NCBI GenBank assembly: GCA_951406725.2
Contig: OX597824.1
Span: 82,832,001-82,896,000 of the forward strand
Source: Octopus vulgaris
Taxonomy: Eukaryota
Reading direction: 5' to 3'
DNA: 64,000 bases
Shown here: in pieces, positions 610-46,030 of the stretch
How the letters are laid out: the number at the start of each line of letters is the position of its first letter
Position numbering within the stretch: position 1 is the first letter of the stretch
The notes under the pieces: model-generated
Told to the model about the DNA's origin: nothing
The model's database searches: none
The model's input: only the letters and a program-made list of their open reading frames with translations
Translations under genes and position numbers: made by a program

Positions 610-845
610 ACCCGTTCAGATACTGAGGGTTTAATTTAAATTCAAGCTATCTACAAGTCCTTCACTTAGTGATGTTTCGTTCCAGGTCGAAAAATTAAAT
701 CTATATGTTATGTATATGATACAATATCTAGCTCATCAAAAGGCGTCAAGGTCGACGTAGCCACTCATCCTTCCGGAGCCAATACAATTAAAATACCAGT
801 CAATCCTGACCAAAAAAAAAAACTGGGCCTCTTACGATTTTGCTC

Positions 846-8274: not shown

Positions 8275-9862
8275 ATATATATATAGTATGTGTGTATGTA
8301 GTATACTGCACACATGTATTCTCAACACAGTCGCTTGATATGCTGGAAATGCAAACCACACACACTACTGCCCTCAAAGAATGGAAGAACACTTTGAATA
8401 ATTTAGTCCTAAAGACACTATGAAAACATAACACTATAAGGTGACTGCAGTTGAAAAACTTCTGACATCAGGATTCTCGATAGGGGTCACCTAGGGCTAA
8501 AGAGCAACACCCGATAATGTCGTTGAAAAAACTCAACACGATCGCTAGTCGTTTTAGAAATAGCAGCTAAACCACTCTTCACTGGTGTTCTAACTGCTTT
8601 GGAAAGCAATAGCCCAACAAACTTCTAAACACCGAAATCCTTTTGAATATAGTTCAGATGGATCAGAGCTGATCAGGAGCTAAACGACCAGACAACTACA
8701 TACATTAGATATATGCAGGCCACACCTCACATTTGGAGCCAACGATGAAGCCTCTACGGGGTCGTTCAAAATGCTAGAAATAACAGAAAAGTTATTCCGT
8801 GTAATCAAACCTAACACCCTTTCAAAATCGCTATACATTGTATAGCTTCTCGGGTTACAGTGTAAATGAATAAGAGACGAGATAGTCTTGGTTAGAATGC
8901 TCTTGTTATTAACAAAGGTGTGTGACATGGGCAAAATAACAAAGGCAATCACTACCCACTCGCACGCGTACATCACACATACACCACAAACCGCACATAC
9001 TAAAAATAAACCAGAAATAACACACATACACCTACTGATTTTACCTGACTGAAAATAACTGAAACGCAAATTAATTTTAGATCGATTAAACAATTGTACA
9101 AATGCACAAGTGCGCATACGAATATATGGAAATAGAGAGAGAGATACACAAAGGTTGGTTGAGATTTGGCAGATAAACGAGGAAGTACTCAATACATGTT
9201 CTATATTTGGTTTATTCAAACTAAGCATACATACTCGCACACAAACATTTAATGAAGGATTAAAAGCATGTATTTTAACACCTCGAATTTCGTTTATGGT
9301 AAATTGTATAATATAGAACAGTGTCTTAATTATCACAAAACTCGCTAATTTGGAGCGCAATTTGATAGACTATTTAAGAGAATTAACAATAGGGGTAACA
9401 AGCTAACAATATCATTCGTTAGGGGATCTGTTGAAGGGAGAGAGATGTCATGCGGTATTTGTTCCGATTTTTTACATTCTGAGTTCAAATTCCATGGAGG
9501 GCAACTTTGCTTTTCATCCCTCCGGGGTCGAAAAAATTAAATACCAGTCTGGTACTAGGGTTGAAGCAATCAACAAACACTTTCTCCTAAAATTTGTTGG
9601 CTTTGAGGATAAATTAGAAACATGTTAGGAACAGACGATGTAAGAAGGAAATTGCTCGCCCAATATTGTTAAGTACAAGCTGTCAATACCCCCTTAGCAT
9701 CATTATAGACTCGGGCTGAATAAACCAATGTACTGGGGCCCTATAGTGTCCATTAGCAGCAATCCACAGCATACATAGAATAAAATCGGGACCCTAGATC
9801 CGTGGGGTCCCTGGCCAGCCCTGTTAATAAGAGGTAAGAACTATGTAGCCCTGTATTATATT

Positions 9863-10093
9863 CATTTCGTTACTACCCACAAGGGGCTAAACACAGAGGG
9901 GATAAACAAGGACAGACAAACGGATTAAGTCGATTACATCGACCCCAGTGCGTAACTGGTACTTAATTTATCGACCCCGAAAGGATGAAAGGCAAAGTCG
10001 ACCTCGGCGGAATTTGAACCCAGAACGTAACGGCAGACGAAATACGGCTACGCATTTCGCCTGGCGTGCTAACGTTTCTGCCAGCTCGCCGCC
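9863..10093 (-). mobile_element. Full-length tRNA-derived SINE, family B (GGCGGCGAGCTGGCAGAA... head)
   Basis: Sense strand has A-box-like GAGCTGGCAGAA, B-box GGTTCAAATTCC, central GCCTTTCATCCTTTCGGGGTCGATAAATTAAGTACCAG block and tail GCCCCTTGTGGGTAGTAA. It is flanked by a direct repeat CTGTATTATATT (9851-9862 and 10094-10105), read as a TSD. Confidence 0.9.
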
Positions 10094-10496
10094 CTGTATT
10101 ATATTATTTAGATACAGAGTTCAAATAACGCCGAAGTCAAGCTTTTCTTCCATCCTTTCGGGGTCGATAAAAAAAAAAAAAGCATCACAGTTGTGCCCTG
10201 GATTTCGATGTATTCGATTCCCTCTACCCTCAAAATTGTTGCACTTGTGCCAAAATTAAAAAAGGATTATTAGATAGACTTTGTAAGTCTATCAATAATG
10301 TTGGTGACCCTACATAATTGCAAAACTTACATGAAAATTTATTTCAAGTACAGATATGCAGATAAGTGGTAAAACTAGGTTTTTCGTTTCGTTCTGCATA
10401 TATATATATATATATACGTTATTAAAAGCAGTAGAAAATCACAAAAACTGTCAGTTTTATGTTCCCATTTGTCGGGCAGGGTAGAATATATATATG

Positions 10497-13025: not shown

Positions 13026-13926
13026 AATCAAATCCATTTGATAGATTCACATGTCAAAATAATTGTGCGGTATGTTCCACAAATCCACATGTGAACTGCA
13101 AAACCAAGAGCACTGTATACCAATATATATATATATATATATGTACACGCGCACATATTATATATACACATGCACACTGTTAACAATATATAATCACGGA
13201 TCATGAATAAATAAATATTATACAAGGCTCATATTCTAATAAGCATTTAGTTTCTCGGGGCAAATTAGGAGCTAATACACGCGCGCAAAAATGAATAAAT
13301 AATTATAAAAAGCAACAGCGAAACGAAGTACCGCGCAGCGAAACGAAACGATACTAATTGACGATAAACATTTTAGAAAGCTCCCTGGCAATTGCTTCTC
13401 TTTCTCTCTCTACTTCTTTTACATTCGTGCTGGTTTATTTACAAAACAATATCACATGTTGAAGCAAGATTTTCGTTGTTTATTTTCTTCTTTCTATCTT
13501 ATTTTCATATTCTTATCGTTACTTTCTGGTTACGTTTTATCGTTTTGGGGTACTTTTTATCGTTAGTTTTGGGTTATTTTTTTATCGTTTACTGTCATCA
13601 TGTTCCTATCATTACGTTATTTTTTTTCTTCGTTTTTCAATATTTTATCGTTACTTTGTTTTGTTTTTCTTCTGTTTCTTTGCAAATAAATAACAACAAG
13701 CAAGCATATACATAGAAGGAAATGAGTTTGCGTAACATACATGCTTTGAAAAATGCGTTTGTGTAACAGTCATGCCTTGAAAACACAATTTTCTGCAAGA
13801 GAAGAATTTCGTGCGGATGGGTGAGGTGACATACATGGGAAAATAGTCTGTAGCTATATTAGCTGGCTTCATTTTTGACCCCTCTCTCTCTTCATTTGTT
13901 GTTTAGCATTAAGGACTTTGAAAGCA

Positions 13927-14384
13927 CTCCAGCCTATGCCGTGTTAAGGCACGGCACATTGGAAAGTTTTCCGAGTGGGCTCGCGGGTTTAGAGACCCAA
14001 GAACTCCAACCTATGCTGTGTTAAGGCACGGCTTACTGGGAAATTTTCAGAGTGGGCTCGCGGGTTTAGAGACCCAAGAACTCCAACTTATGCTGTGTTA
14101 AGGCACGGCTTGTTGGGAAGTTTTCCGAGTGGGCTGGCGGGTTTAGAGACCCAAGAACTCCAACCCATGCCGTGTTAAGGCACGGCTTATTGGGAAGTTT
14201 TCCGAGTGGGCTAGCGGGTTTAGAGACCCAAGAACTCCAACCCATGCCGTGTTAAGGCACGGCTTATTGGGGAAATTTTCCGAGTGGGCTCGCGGGTTTA
14301 GAGACCCAAGAACTCCAACCCATGCCGTGTTAAGGCACGGCTTATTGGGAAGTTTTCCGAGTGGGTTCGCAGTTTTAGAGACCT
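13927..14384. repeat. 77-bp GC-rich minisatellite, 6 copies
   Basis: Unit CTCCAACCCATGCCGTGTTAAGGCACGGCTTATTGGGAAGTTTTCCGAGTGGGCTCGCGGGTTTAGAGACCCAAGAA; starts at 13927, 14004, 14081, 14158, 14235, 14313. Confidence 0.95.
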
Positions 14385-25858: not shown

Positions 25859-27312
25859 ATCATTAGCCTCGGAAGAATGAAGAACTAAAACAATCCGGGT
25901 GAGATTTAAGCTTAAGTAGGTGTTGTTGCAACTAAAACCATAGCACTTCACCCCTTTCAGTTAGAAAATCGTCCATTATCGACCCCCTAAAGAATGAAAA
26001 GCAAAATCGACCTCGGCAGAATTTGCATCGAAATTTGCATCGAAATTATGAAAAGCAAAGTTGATCCCGGCGGGATTTGAACTCAGAAGGTAATTTGTTG
26101 CGTAAATTTAAAAAACAGTAAAGTATTTTGTTCGACGCTCTAGCGATTCAGCCAAGCGAAGGGGCCACCCCATACCAACTCTCGGTAACTGATTAGTAAC
26201 TTTGATTATGGGAGGATAATAAGGCATAGTCGATATCCAAGAGGATTTGAACTCGGGGACCTAAAGGGCCGTATCCCGTAGCTCTACGTATTCTGCCAAT
26301 ACACCGCAGTGATGATGGCCATGATGATGATGATTTCATTTTCCACCCGGAGCGACGGATGAGGAGGGGATGGGTGATGCAAAGACAAGAAATAAAGTAA
26401 GGATTTTCATAGAATGGTATGATTTAGGAGAATAGATGTATGTGGTACAACAGTATGCGTATGTGGAAGAAGAAGAAGAAGAAGAAGAAGAAGAAGAAGA
26501 AGAAGAAGAGAAGAAGAAGAAGAAGAAGAAGAAGAAGAAGAAGAAGAAGAAGAAGAAGAAGAAGAAGAAGAAGAAGAAGAAGAAGAGTAGTAGGTAGTTT
26601 TAACGTAAAGTAGACATAAGGCCAGAAAGGGATTAATTGATTAAATGGGTCCAGTACCTGAGTACTTGACTGGTACTTTAATTTATTGACGAAAAAGAAC
26701 AAAAACAAAAAAAAAAAACAAAAGGATGAACAAAAAGCTTGACATCGGAGGAATTTGAACGCAGAACGTTCCGAGTCGAAACAAATACTTCAAGGCATTT
26801 GTCCGACACTCTAACAAGCTCTGATATATATTTTTTCCCCTTTTAGAAAGGGTTATAACGAACCAAGGATATTACTTGTACCAAAGCTTACATCTACGAA
26901 ATAACGATCATCGAACGCAGGGTGATGGTACTAAATACGACAGATTTATACCTAAGATAGTGTATCTTTACCTGTTATGAGCAACAACGGTGATATGCCT
27001 ACAAATAGGGCCTGTAGGAGAAGATTGGGGCTGATACATCGTTCTAGAAACCGGTCAGGTGAAAAAGGGACAGACAGATGTCTAGTTTCCGGGTCCGTCC
27101 CCCACCAAAAAAAAAAGAGAAAACATCATAGCTCTCGTGTATTTTGGTACACACTCACACACGCATTCCTCGGGTCTTAAAGCAGTTTTGCTACAACTTG
27201 CTGAATTTCTCTCGAAGACTTTGCCCAGCCTCATCATCACCACCACCACCACCACAGCCGCCACCATCACCACGACAACACCCGTACAGAGATATCAGTT
27301 ATACGTACAATC

Positions 27313-39179: not shown

Positions 39180-39742
39180 ACCTAATACTGGTTTCGAGTC
39201 TTAGCACAAGGCCAACGATTTCGGGTGAGGGACCGGGTCGATTACATCGACCCCCAGTGCTCAACTAGTACTTATTTTATCGACCCCCGAATGCATAAAA
39301 GGCAAAGTCGACCTCGGCGGAATTTGAAACCAGAACGTAAGGACGGACGAAATGCCGCTAAGCATTTTTATTTGTTTCAGTCAATTTAGACTGCGGCCAT
39401 GCTGGGGCACGCCCTGAAAGCGTTTTTAAAGAAACGTATCGACACCAGTACTTGCTTTTTAAAAACCTGGTACTTATTCCGTCGGTTGTTTTTTCCTGAA
39501 CCGCTAAGTTACAGGCACGTCTGCGCACCACCACCGGTTGTCAGGCAGTGGTGGTGGGTAAACACACACACACACACACACACATACTTATATATATAAA
39601 CACACACGCACAACGGGTTTCTTTCAGTATCCGTCTACTAATTCACGTCTCACACTTGCCCAATTTGGCACGCAGTGGGACTGAACCCGGAACTATGTGA
39701 CTGAGAAAGAAACTTCTTACCACCATAGCCACGCTTGCTCCT
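39180..39742 (-). mobile_element. Adjacent older family B-like (39180-39365) and family A-like (39370-39742) SINEs
   Basis: GTCGATTACATCGACCCCCAGTGC...GGCAAAGTCGACCTCGGCGGAATTTGAA followed directly by TGTTTCAGTC...CTGCGGCCATGCTGGGGCAC...CACGCAGTGGGACTGAACCCGG. Confidence 0.75.
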
Positions 39743-40444: not shown

Positions 40445-41030
40445 TTCTTTACTACCCACAAGGGGCTAAACACAGAGAGGACAAACAAGGACAGACAAAC
40501 GGATTAAGTCAATTACATCGACCCCAGTGCATAACTGGTTCTTAATTTATCAACCCCGAAAGGATGAAAGGCAAAGTCGACCTCGGCGGAATTTGAACTC
40601 AGAACGTAGCGGCAGACAAAATACCTATTTCTTTACTGCCCACAAGGGACTAAACACAGAGAGGACAAACAAGGACAGACAAAGGGATTAAGTCAATTAT
40701 ATCGACCCCGGTGCATAACTGGTTCTTAATTTATCAACCCCGAAAGGATGAAAGGCAAAGTCGACCTCGGCGGAATTTGAACTCAGAACGTAGCGACAGA
40801 CGAAATACCTATTTCTTTATTACCCACAAAAGGCTAAACACAGAGGGGACAAACAAGGACAGACAAACGGATTAAGTCGATTACATCGACCCCAGTGCGT
40901 AACTGGTACTTAATTTATCGACCCCGAAAGGATGAAAGGCAAAGTCCACCTCGGCGGAATTTGAACTCAGAACGTAGCGACAGACGAAATACCGCTAAGT
41001 ATTTCGCCCGGCGTGCTAACGCTTCTGCCA
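40445..41030 (-). mobile_element. Head-to-tail trimer of family B SINE (184-bp unit) with one 5' head
   Basis: Junctions AAATACCTATTTCTTTA at about 40619 and 40803; the 5' head (GGCAGAAGCGTTAGCACGCCGGGCGAAA) is present only once, at 41000-41030. Confidence 0.9.
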
Positions 41031-41465
41031 AAGATGCTATACTTTCTATGTATCTCCCAATCGTGCTGTATACTATGAAGTGCCAAAAAGTTTCATTGCC
41101 CTACTGCGACCTAATATCTGATTGAATTTGAAGTGAGTCACAGAGATAACGGGTGAACTGTGTCAGTGAACCAGCTTGCAGAAGGACGACGAAACTATTC
41201 GGCACTTCATAATAGACAGTAATATTAGAAAGTTAATTAAAAGAGAAATAGTTCCTGTGACTTCTTAAACGGATAAAATCATTTTTCTTATATTCTTTTT
41301 TTTCTTTTCTTTTCTTTTATACATACGTTTCAGCCCTAAGGCTGTGGCCATGCTGGGGCACCGTGAGTGAGAGAGAGAGGAGGAGGAGGAGGAAGAAGAG
41401 GGAGAGCGGAGGGGAAGATGGGGAGGGAGAGACAGACAGACAGAGACAGACAGACACGGCTATTA

Positions 41466-41501
<36 letters not shown>

Positions 41502-41761
41502 CTTATCTGCTTCGAGATTCACCGTTGCTAAAAAAAGATATACTTATGAGTGCGCGAGCGCTTGTGGGTGTCTGGCTGCACTCACACACGCACACACGCA
41601 CACACACATACACACACACACACACACACGTTCATACATGCATTCGTATGTATTAGTGTGACCTATTCATGTTCTTCAAAAGCCCTGGCACTCCCTCTTT
41701 CTCACCCCCACCCCCACCTCCTCCGCTCTCTCCCTGCCACTCTCTCTCTCTCTCTCTCTCT

Positions 41762-41804
<43 letters not shown>

Positions 41805-42215
41805 GCTGACCTGTCTTTCAAATCCACGACATACACCCCCAATTTAAAACAGGCAAGTTGAGGACATCTCTCGCTACAGTGGAGCGCTGTTTAAACAGCA
41901 GCAGCAGCAGCAGCAGCAGCAGTAGCAGCAGTAGCAGCAGCAGTAGTAGTAGCAGCAGCAGTAGTTGTTGTTGTAGTAGTTGTAGTATCATTAGAAAAAT
42001 AAACACACGCTAGCAACATTTAGCAACAGATTTACAAATTAGCAACAACAACAACTAATAACAATGACTACAGCAGACCCCTGTTACACAAGCAGTTAAC
42101 AACATAGCAAGCCAGTAAGGGAGGGAACGTCTATAGGCTCGCTAAAAATAGCAGCCAAATCTCATCCCCGCCCACATCCCCAAACATACACTAACGCTCG
42201 CGCGCACACATACAT

Positions 42216-42782
42216 TACCTATTTCTTTATTACTCACAAGGGGTTAAACATAGAGGGGACAAACAAGGACAGACATAGGTATTAAGTCGATTACATCGCC
42301 CTCCCCCCCCCCCCAGTGCGCAACTGGTACTTAATTTATCGATCCCCCGAAAGGATGAAAGGCAAAGTCGACCTCGGCGGAATTTGAACTCAGAACGTAG
42401 CGACAGACGAAATACTTATTTCTTTATTACCCACAAGGGGCTAAACATAGAGGGGACAAACAAGGACAGACATAGGTATTAAGTCGATTACATCGACCTC
42501 CCAGTGTGCAACTGGTACTTAATTTATCGACCCCCGAAAGGATGAAAGGCAAAGTCGACCTCGGCGGAATTTGAACTCAGAACGTAGCGACAGACGAAAT
42601 ACCTATTTCTTTATTACCCACAAGGGGCTAAAGACAGAGGGGACAAACAAGGACAGACATAGGTATTAAGCCGATTACATCGACACCCCCCAGTGCGCAA
42701 CTGGTACTTAATTTATCGACCCCCCCCCCCCCGAAAGGATGAAAGGCAAAGTCGATCTCGGCGGAATTTGAACTCACAACGT
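42216..42782 (-). mobile_element. Second head-to-tail trimer of family B SINE, 5'-truncated
   Basis: Junctions at about 42410 (one base change) and 42597 match the first array; all three units share the variant CAGACATAGGTATTAAG. Confidence 0.9.
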
Positions 42783-42965
42783 TACCGTCTTTAAATATTG
42801 AAGGGTGCTGCGTTGAATAACGTAGTCTGTGTGATACACATTATACAAAAGTAAGGGGTGATAGCCACGGCTGGGAATCCTTTTCTGAGCAAATGTCATC
42901 TCCATCAAAAACCTGACCTGTTGCTGAACAATAACAACAACAACATCAGTAATAGTGGTAGTAGT

Positions 42966-45913: not shown

Positions 45914-46030
45914 AGCGGCGAGCAGGCAGAACCGTTAGCAACGTTCTGAGCTCAAATGTCGCCTAAGTCGACTCTACTTTTCATCCCTTTCGGGGTCGAT
46001 AAAAAAACAAGTACCAGTTGCAGTTTCCCC
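45914..46030 (+). mobile_element. Degenerate family B SINE
   Basis: AGCGGCGAGCAGGCAGAACCGTTAGC...TTTCATCCCTTTCGGGGTCGATAAA...GTACCAG; similar relics at about 9455-9560, 10115-10170, 14985-15050, 25975-26150 and 26660-26810. Confidence 0.7.

Follow-up and report, generated by a model that had tools for sequence, protein, structure and literature searches.

Several described systems resemble the tandem SINE units analysed here, and each of their elements taken singly, namely target-specific SINEs with sequential insertion (PMC4494074), annealed R2 junctions and SINE-derived satellites (PMC10702118), is already described in the accessible parts of the literature. According to the available text on crocodilians, SINEU-3/Tx1-Mar prefers another repeat as its target, inserts sequentially in tandem and is presumably driven by a Tx1-type LINE (PMC4494074), all of which recalls the octopus SINE family called B below. 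However, the SINEU-3 target is a Mariner transposon and the target site duplication (TSD) is sandwiched between the tandem copies, whereas B is found in its own head, mostly without a second head or an inner TSD. In the 'Anneal' 5′ junctions of R2, as portrayed in the sections at hand, the cDNA pairs with homologous upstream target and the shared sequence is not duplicated (PMC11331408, PMC6895275); we liken the B junctions to these. R2 uses a restriction-like endonuclease and deliberately includes rRNA sequence, whereas B would be the passenger SINE of an APE-type LINE, homologous because its target is itself; unlike in R2, stalled cDNAs are apparently rescued too.

The squamate sSat elements, in the accessible portion of their description (PMC10702118), share with the B arrays a dispersed tandem SINE part, a longer terminal unit and growth by unequal recombination. 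Their first duplication, on the other hand, is attributed to unequal recombination and their units are variable, whereas B shows one fixed junction set by insertion, mostly 2–3 units and tens of thousands of loci. Finally, metazoan non-LTR retrozymes are presented in the consulted excerpts as 150–450 bp tandem units occurring as dispersed dimers to multimers (PMC7229834; bioRxiv 10.64898/2026.07.22.740005). The 184-bp units of B comply with this size, but B differs from retrozymes in having no hammerhead, a Pol III-type head, a tail shared with a LINE and heterologous units. We found no account of a SINE inserting seamlessly into its own head, or of the arrays described here, in the open-access papers searched.

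Two SINE arrays in the window

The window, a stretch of 64,000 nucleotides from Octopus vulgaris (GCA_951406725.2, contig OX597824.1, positions 82,832,001 to 82,896,000), contains two arrays of three units each on the minus strand (41030–40445 and 42785–42220), with a period of 184–187 bp. Two families are distinguished, A and B, which have the head and core in common (monomer positions 1–165) and differ in their tails; B is the family of the first-pass annotation. The parts of the two arrays and of the B monomer in the window are the following.

40810–41030, minus strand: array 1, lead unit; starts at monomer position 11 and comprises a tRNA-like head, the core common to A and B and a family-B tail
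40626–40809, minus strand: array 1, unit 2; monomer positions 48–231
40445–40625, minus strand: array 1, last unit; monomer positions 48–228
42604–42785, minus strand: array 2, first unit; 5′-truncated near position 63–70, upstream sequence without a host head
42417–42603, minus strand: array 2, unit 2; positions 48–231, array-2 subfamily
42220–42416, minus strand: array 2, unit 3; positions 48–231, with a poly-G expansion
42207–42219, minus strand: array 2, putative TSD, 3′ copy; begins with the preferred GGTA and matches 42775–42786 in 11 of 13 columns
42775–42786, minus strand: array 2, putative TSD, 5′ copy; microhomology overlap with the truncated first unit
9863–10093, minus strand: family-B monomer; head of the 43G/48C variant, without the GGTAT site
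9848–9862, no strand assigned: monomer TSD, 3′ copy; 15 bp, perfect
10091–10105, no strand assigned: monomer TSD, 5′ copy; 15 bp, perfect

The first-pass annotation had described two separate SINE multimers with one common junction, and this is real: in all four joins the tail end is fused to monomer position 48, with single-base variants in two of the four. It was also right that the lead unit of array 1 alone keeps the head (clipped by 10 nt), that a B-box-like motif, visible in the alignment, is kept in every unit and that the monomer is flanked by a TSD. The A- and B-box-like motifs of the head can be seen in the alignment and may be such boxes, judged against the consensus; ARAGORN found no tRNA gene in the window. 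The palindrome claimed at the junction is present but weak, the unit folding no better than its shuffles (z +1.0). Two other claims were not confirmed. Array 2 was thought to run 4 nt into a further unit, yet the sequence leaves the unit at the base that follows, and these 'extra 4 nt' probably belong to the target DNA, since the 13 bases past the tail match the 5′ end of the array in 11 of 13 columns, as a target duplication would. The variants said to be shared within an array fared no better: that of array 2 is a subfamily mark found in 16,611 exact genome copies, all three units belonging to this one subfamily, and the lead unit of array 1 has 14/181 and 11/180 differences to its two neighbours, which falls in the range of 9–19 seen between the arrays.

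Units 2 and 3 of array 1 have four rare variants in common and only 7 differences in 180; unit 2 was therefore likely duplicated from unit 3. The lead unit, unlike these two, is likely the newest insertion and the last unit the remainder of an older host copy, so that array 1 would fit the route that we consider common below; no TSD was found around it. Array 2 is a headless exception and probably a read-through multimer that was copied whole. When array 1 was compared with four contig sets from other organisms, the matches were swamped by the repeat family; the flank of array 2 matches two contigs, the junction not being in view, and neither result was used. Older fragments of the SINE group, 75–92% alike to the monomer, lie elsewhere in the window (736–800, 9472–9574, 10119–10171, 25976–26093, 26721–26769, 39237–39367 and 45915–46019), as does a GC-rich 77-bp tandem unit repeated six times with 92% likeness (13922–14383).

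The junction as a target site

Free copies of B have a constant last base, at which the TSD sets in. Of the bases at −1 in 34 TSDs, 27 are pyrimidines and none is G; there follow G (19), G (19), T (25), A (23) and T (18). GGTA directly follows the terminal B tail in 39 of 131 cases, and the SINE head itself carries C followed by GGTAT at position 48. Because B prefers targets with a pyrimidine before GGTA, and head position 48 offers that motif, the junction is the B tail plus its target motif.

B demonstrably inserts into older SINE copies. An antisense GGTAC site in older SINEs accounts for 932 exact B junctions, with both host halves present, and 29 of 41 full-length B copies nested in antisense have a perfect TSD of 9–17 bp; nested B copies with target duplications of 13–17 bp exist as well. 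In the sense orientation, a search for loci with two heads gave 149 matches. Among 29 distinct double-head loci, 14 consist of host head, B and the rest of the host, and five are insertions at an existing junction. In five loci (L253, L263, L276, L277, L278) a full B running into non-SINE DNA is preceded by part of a head or by a complete B unit plus positions 48–65; this may be an additional template copied at the 5′ end. The 43G/48C head without the GGTAT site, present in the window monomer (10046–10051) and in 37 of 136 monomers, possibly represents an escape from being inserted into.

Number and form of the arrays in the genome

The genome-wide count proposed in the first-pass annotation yields 39,269 exact 20-mers of the junction and none of the reversed control. 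Out of 118,389 exact family-B tails, 32,812 (27.7%) run into head position 48, a share of about a fifth once later-duplicated units are removed (1.4 junctions per array); more than 20% of flanks in one repeat, a mark of the SINEU-3 type, is thus found for B tails. The register is fixed: in loci not chosen for a junction, 31 of 36 tail-to-unit joins are at position 48, four at 15 and one at 42. The rarer second junction at position 15 (1,950 exact 30-mers) is re-hit at position 48 in 10 of 25 loci. It is used (L221–L250) mainly by an older tail of the 219C/221A type, which favours AGAA targets. A position-48 unit after an A tail was seen in 0 of 13 cases.

The common array form is a head plus B unit, optional further B units, and then a terminal unit that belongs to B, to A or to an older relative. 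Arrays of 2, 3, 4, 5 and 6 units number 63, 19, 5, 1 and 1, respectively, a distribution based on 89 fetched arrays found regardless of length; most of the loci analysed were selected by exact patterns, mainly from contigs C1–C3. Family B as a whole is interspersed and of high copy number, and 23 of 39 monomers have a TSD within 2 mismatches in 12. The suggested check for TSDs around whole arrays is positive in 36 of 70 by the same measure, against a background of 5%. Repeat libraries may list such arrays as separate dimer families. Octopus tRNA-derived SINEs named OR1 and OR2 are on record (Ohshima and Okada 1994, as cited in PMC4758252 and PMC3531059). OR1 and OR2 are two abundant families with a tRNA-like head, a shared core and different tails, and families A and B may resemble them.

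Host and newcomer units

Among 35 arrays, the older 219C/221A subfamily occupies the last place in 16 and the first place in 1 (p 0.0003), and its greater age is indicated by a rare-allele load of 0.029 versus 0.013–0.020; the last unit can therefore be taken as the host. In 69 B–B dimers the units are 0.100 apart, compared with 0.108 for shuffled pairs, and only two dimers are under 0.04. In a set of 237 arrays with one head, at least three rare alleles are common to 5 of 10,524 pairs of last units; in none of these does the first-unit match exceed one allele, so that no siblings were found in this set. A fixed unit pair descending from a dimer master, as in Alu, is thus not what these arrays show: their units are independent. 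Some observations run against the nested reading favoured below. For B hosts the age gap in the core is small (rare-allele load 0.019 vs 0.017), the hosts of arrays do not exceed antisense hosts in age and may even be younger (0.027 vs 0.037, p 0.10), and mismatch in the outer TSD (0.121 in A-ended arrays, 0.093 in B monomers) does not discriminate between the two. Head position 19 was discarded as a host/newcomer marker, being confounded by the frequency of the B allele in young A hosts.

A head-bearing first unit is found in 154 of 177 arrays. Headless arrays are array 2 and about 6–8 of 174, while 5–6 of 233 arrays not chosen for this feature have double heads, and these are no younger than the single heads (p 0.27); a hint of youth obtained with 64 columns was gone when 163 columns were compared and a matched control was used. 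First units starting at positions 67–165 are rare in arrays (5/174) as compared with free or antisense-nested copies (20/126; p 8e-5), a test from which tail-only matches (start >165; 9 monomers, 3 arrays), possibly LINE ends, were omitted; with these included, the proportions are 8/177 in arrays versus 19/79. A host head together with a truncated newcomer occurs at only three loci. Host-type alleles at 59–63 are found in 15 of 84 first units (A-type host) versus 5 of 136 monomers, and the concordance between first and last units declines from 5′ to 3′. The 43G/48C head, which lacks the site and therefore must be the newcomer's and not a host's, is found in 26 of 191 arrays versus 37 of 136 monomers (p 0.003). 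To judge from these alleles, the heads of the arrays are a mix, about half host and half newcomer. The single head, the few 5′ truncations and the host alleles together point to homology-based joining during insertion, as in R2, although truncated newcomers do remain visible at the position-15 site (3/25).

A model for the origin of the arrays and its alternatives

In the explanation that we favour, with a probability of about 0.7, the junction would be made anew each time a new B copy is reverse-transcribed into position 48 of an older copy, the cDNA pairing with the homologous host and leaving one head. The mechanism is read wholly from fossil genomic copies. It starts from what is observed: B ends at a fixed base and prefers a target motif present at head position 48, and B enters older SINE copies, leaving TSDs of 13–17 bp. 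The enzyme would be supplied by an L1/Tx1-type LINE with a matching 3′ tail. The sense-oriented cDNA would then anneal to the host, a full-length one to the head and a stalled one to the core, the latter going on to copy host DNA; such annealing would hide both a second head and a 5′ truncation. To judge from mosaic patterns, dimers may subsequently gain units by unequal crossover, slippage or further insertion. Some multimers, finally, may be read through by Pol III, the unit having no T4 run, and be re-inserted whole, as array 2 probably was.

This last step could be extended to most arrays, if a few thousand double-head loci were transcribed from the inner head to the host tail and the retrotransposed read-through multimers made up the bulk. 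The absence of a T4 terminator from either unit would allow it, sense-only amplification and newcomer-type heads would be its outcome, and there are headless arrays whose flanks resemble TSDs (array 2, L106). However, 5′ truncation of first units should then occur at the normal 16%, whereas 2.9% is seen, which limits the route to a minority, and the sibling arrays to be expected are missing from the pairwise comparison given above. As an account of most arrays we hold it unlikely. The concatemeric master transcript proposed in the first-pass annotation is accordingly given up in the form of a single master, there being no siblings among 237 arrays, and kept in that of read-through multimers from many sources, probably a minority; because headless arrays suggest this route, such multimers probably account for roughly a tenth to a third of arrays. 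The copying of two RNAs in one event, either by re-nicking of fresh cDNA at position 48 or by a stall of the reverse transcriptase at an anticodon-like hairpin and a jump to the 3′ end of a B RNA, is in our view improbable. It would explain the sense-only excess, the unrelated units and the one TSD without any homology, as well as the three different templates in 11 of 89 arrays, and LINE reverse transcriptases are described as able to jump without homology in the part of the report at hand (PMC6895275); on the other hand, it predicts exchangeable units of the same age, normal truncation and pure newcomer heads, whereas the old subfamily is last 16:1 and host alleles are seen.

Ordinary nesting could also have produced double heads whose two 63-bp head copies collapsed later by recombination. 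Head repeats do recombine, as head-only tandem arrays show (L260 and L274 among them), but we give this later collapse a very small chance, because it could not erase loci with a host head and a truncated newcomer, which are nearly absent; furthermore, double heads are as rare and as old as stated above, and longer repeats of 118–184 bp remain uncollapsed. Local slippage, called unlikely in the first-pass annotation, cannot have produced the same junction twice. Its alternative proposal of rolling-circle reverse transcription from a circular, retrozyme-like 184-nt RNA is largely refuted and keeps scarcely any credibility. Unit size and dispersed short arrays do recall non-LTR retrozymes as far as the available text describes them (PMC7229834), and the middle units of long arrays are near-identical. 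Nevertheless, no CTGAnGA core was found in the array or the doubled unit, with both strands searched and one change allowed, and no Rfam ribozyme at E up to 10; the head, which lies outside the 184-nt unit, is present in 154 of 177 arrays; dimer units are unrelated, only 2 of 69 dimers being less than 4% apart; many arrays are of mixed family, ending in another family's tail; array ends fall at the tail and not at random phases; and the middle units, mosaics of first and last units, are closer than age allows. An assembly artefact or a single segmental duplication, the remaining objection, deserves practically no weight: the long homopolymer runs of array 2 would invite it, but the loci number tens of thousands, are spread over many contigs and have unrelated flanks, and the two arrays belong to different subfamilies with 9–19 differing sites per unit pair.

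A candidate partner LINE

The B tail motif ends 12 of 20 fetched LINE loci with a zf-RVT domain. A full-length B-tailed LINE has an ORF1 with a zinc knuckle and an ORF2 with APE endonuclease, reverse transcriptase and zf-RVT domains; it is similar to human L1 ORF2 (E 2e-12), and its assignment to the L1/Tx1 type is by the Pfam domains and that similarity. No LINE was found at position 48 or 15 in the 20 loci fetched as top-scoring zf-RVT matches. Looking for tails other than B at position 48 yielded eight matches, six of which are B variants; in L417 a non-B tail is present without an ORF, and L140, considered as a LINE tail candidate, was a one-off. An L1/Tx1-type LINE family with an intact ORF2 of 1140 amino acids has five copies stacked about 5.4 kb apart (G000:C2:73046133-73068136; L421, L426–L429, L431), and it looks site-specific for another repeat because six copies share one downstream sequence. 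Three LINE copies with a B-like tail (L435, L437, L438) also have one common downstream sequence, likely a further specific target.

Insertion rates and homology

Random tiles totalling 560 kb contain 75 heads, of which 12 (16%) carry an array, compared with about 0.7% of generic YGGTAT sites occupied; these per-site rates are rough and based on small counts (12 arrays in 560 kb), and they were computed with 17 generic B insertions per 560 kb, where the script count of 13 would raise the enrichment. For the antisense site the rate is about 0.2%, comparable to generic YGGTAC (0.4%), and for position 15 it is 0.5% or more versus 0.04% for its motif. Since both same-strand sites are enriched and the antisense site is not, homology is favoured over a longer endonuclease site. 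Annealing alone does not explain the 12- to 20-fold per-site excess, because in R2, on the evidence of the accessible text, it altered the junction and yet was no major determinant of efficiency (PMC11331408). Re-mobilised multimers also add to the array count.

A tentative proposal, which we lean somewhat against, is that homology to a resident same-strand copy steers the SINE: pairing of RNA or cDNA might lift success 10- to 20-fold at the unrelated positions 48 and 15, though not at the antisense site, and rescue stalled cDNAs by a switch to host DNA. If true, this would be a natural RNA-guided, self-homing mode of an APE-type retrotransposon, with tens of thousands of events on record. The completion of the 5′ junction is a poorly understood step for LINEs, and R2 has been the main subject of its study. 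In the present genome, about a fifth to a quarter of the insertions of one SINE family landed in homologous targets, and the role of homology can be measured within one genome because the antisense site is a built-in non-homologous control.

Longer arrays and satellites

In arrays of at least four units (n=21) the middle units have a median distance of 0.021. Across 49 arrays, derived alleles in the 5′ third of middle units are shared with the last unit in 36 cases versus 9 with the first, while in the 3′ third they are shared with the first in 30 versus 8 with the last. From these mosaics, longer arrays likely grew later by unequal crossover or slippage. Among 26 arrays of at least three units, 15 have the appearance of duplication and 11 contain three templates. 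As to the features of squamate sSat, a longer terminal unit is found here as the head-bearing first unit, and four or more middle monomers occur in 1 of 89 arrays, although rare long ones exist.

The arrays thus offer a concrete route from a dispersed SINE to a tandem satellite, and they give an insertion-order clock for subfamilies. Head-only tandem arrays with a period of about 64–69 bp (G000:C10:17996026-17996501, C14:84691114-84691406, C13:69036080-69036318, C5:87874785-87875484) apparently grew from double-head loci; because they have no tail, they indicate that growth at the DNA level occurs. The longest case noted, L373 (G000:C2:9366500-9373500), has 19 units, 18 with a B tail followed by one with an A tail, and looks like a nascent satellite from the position-48 junction.
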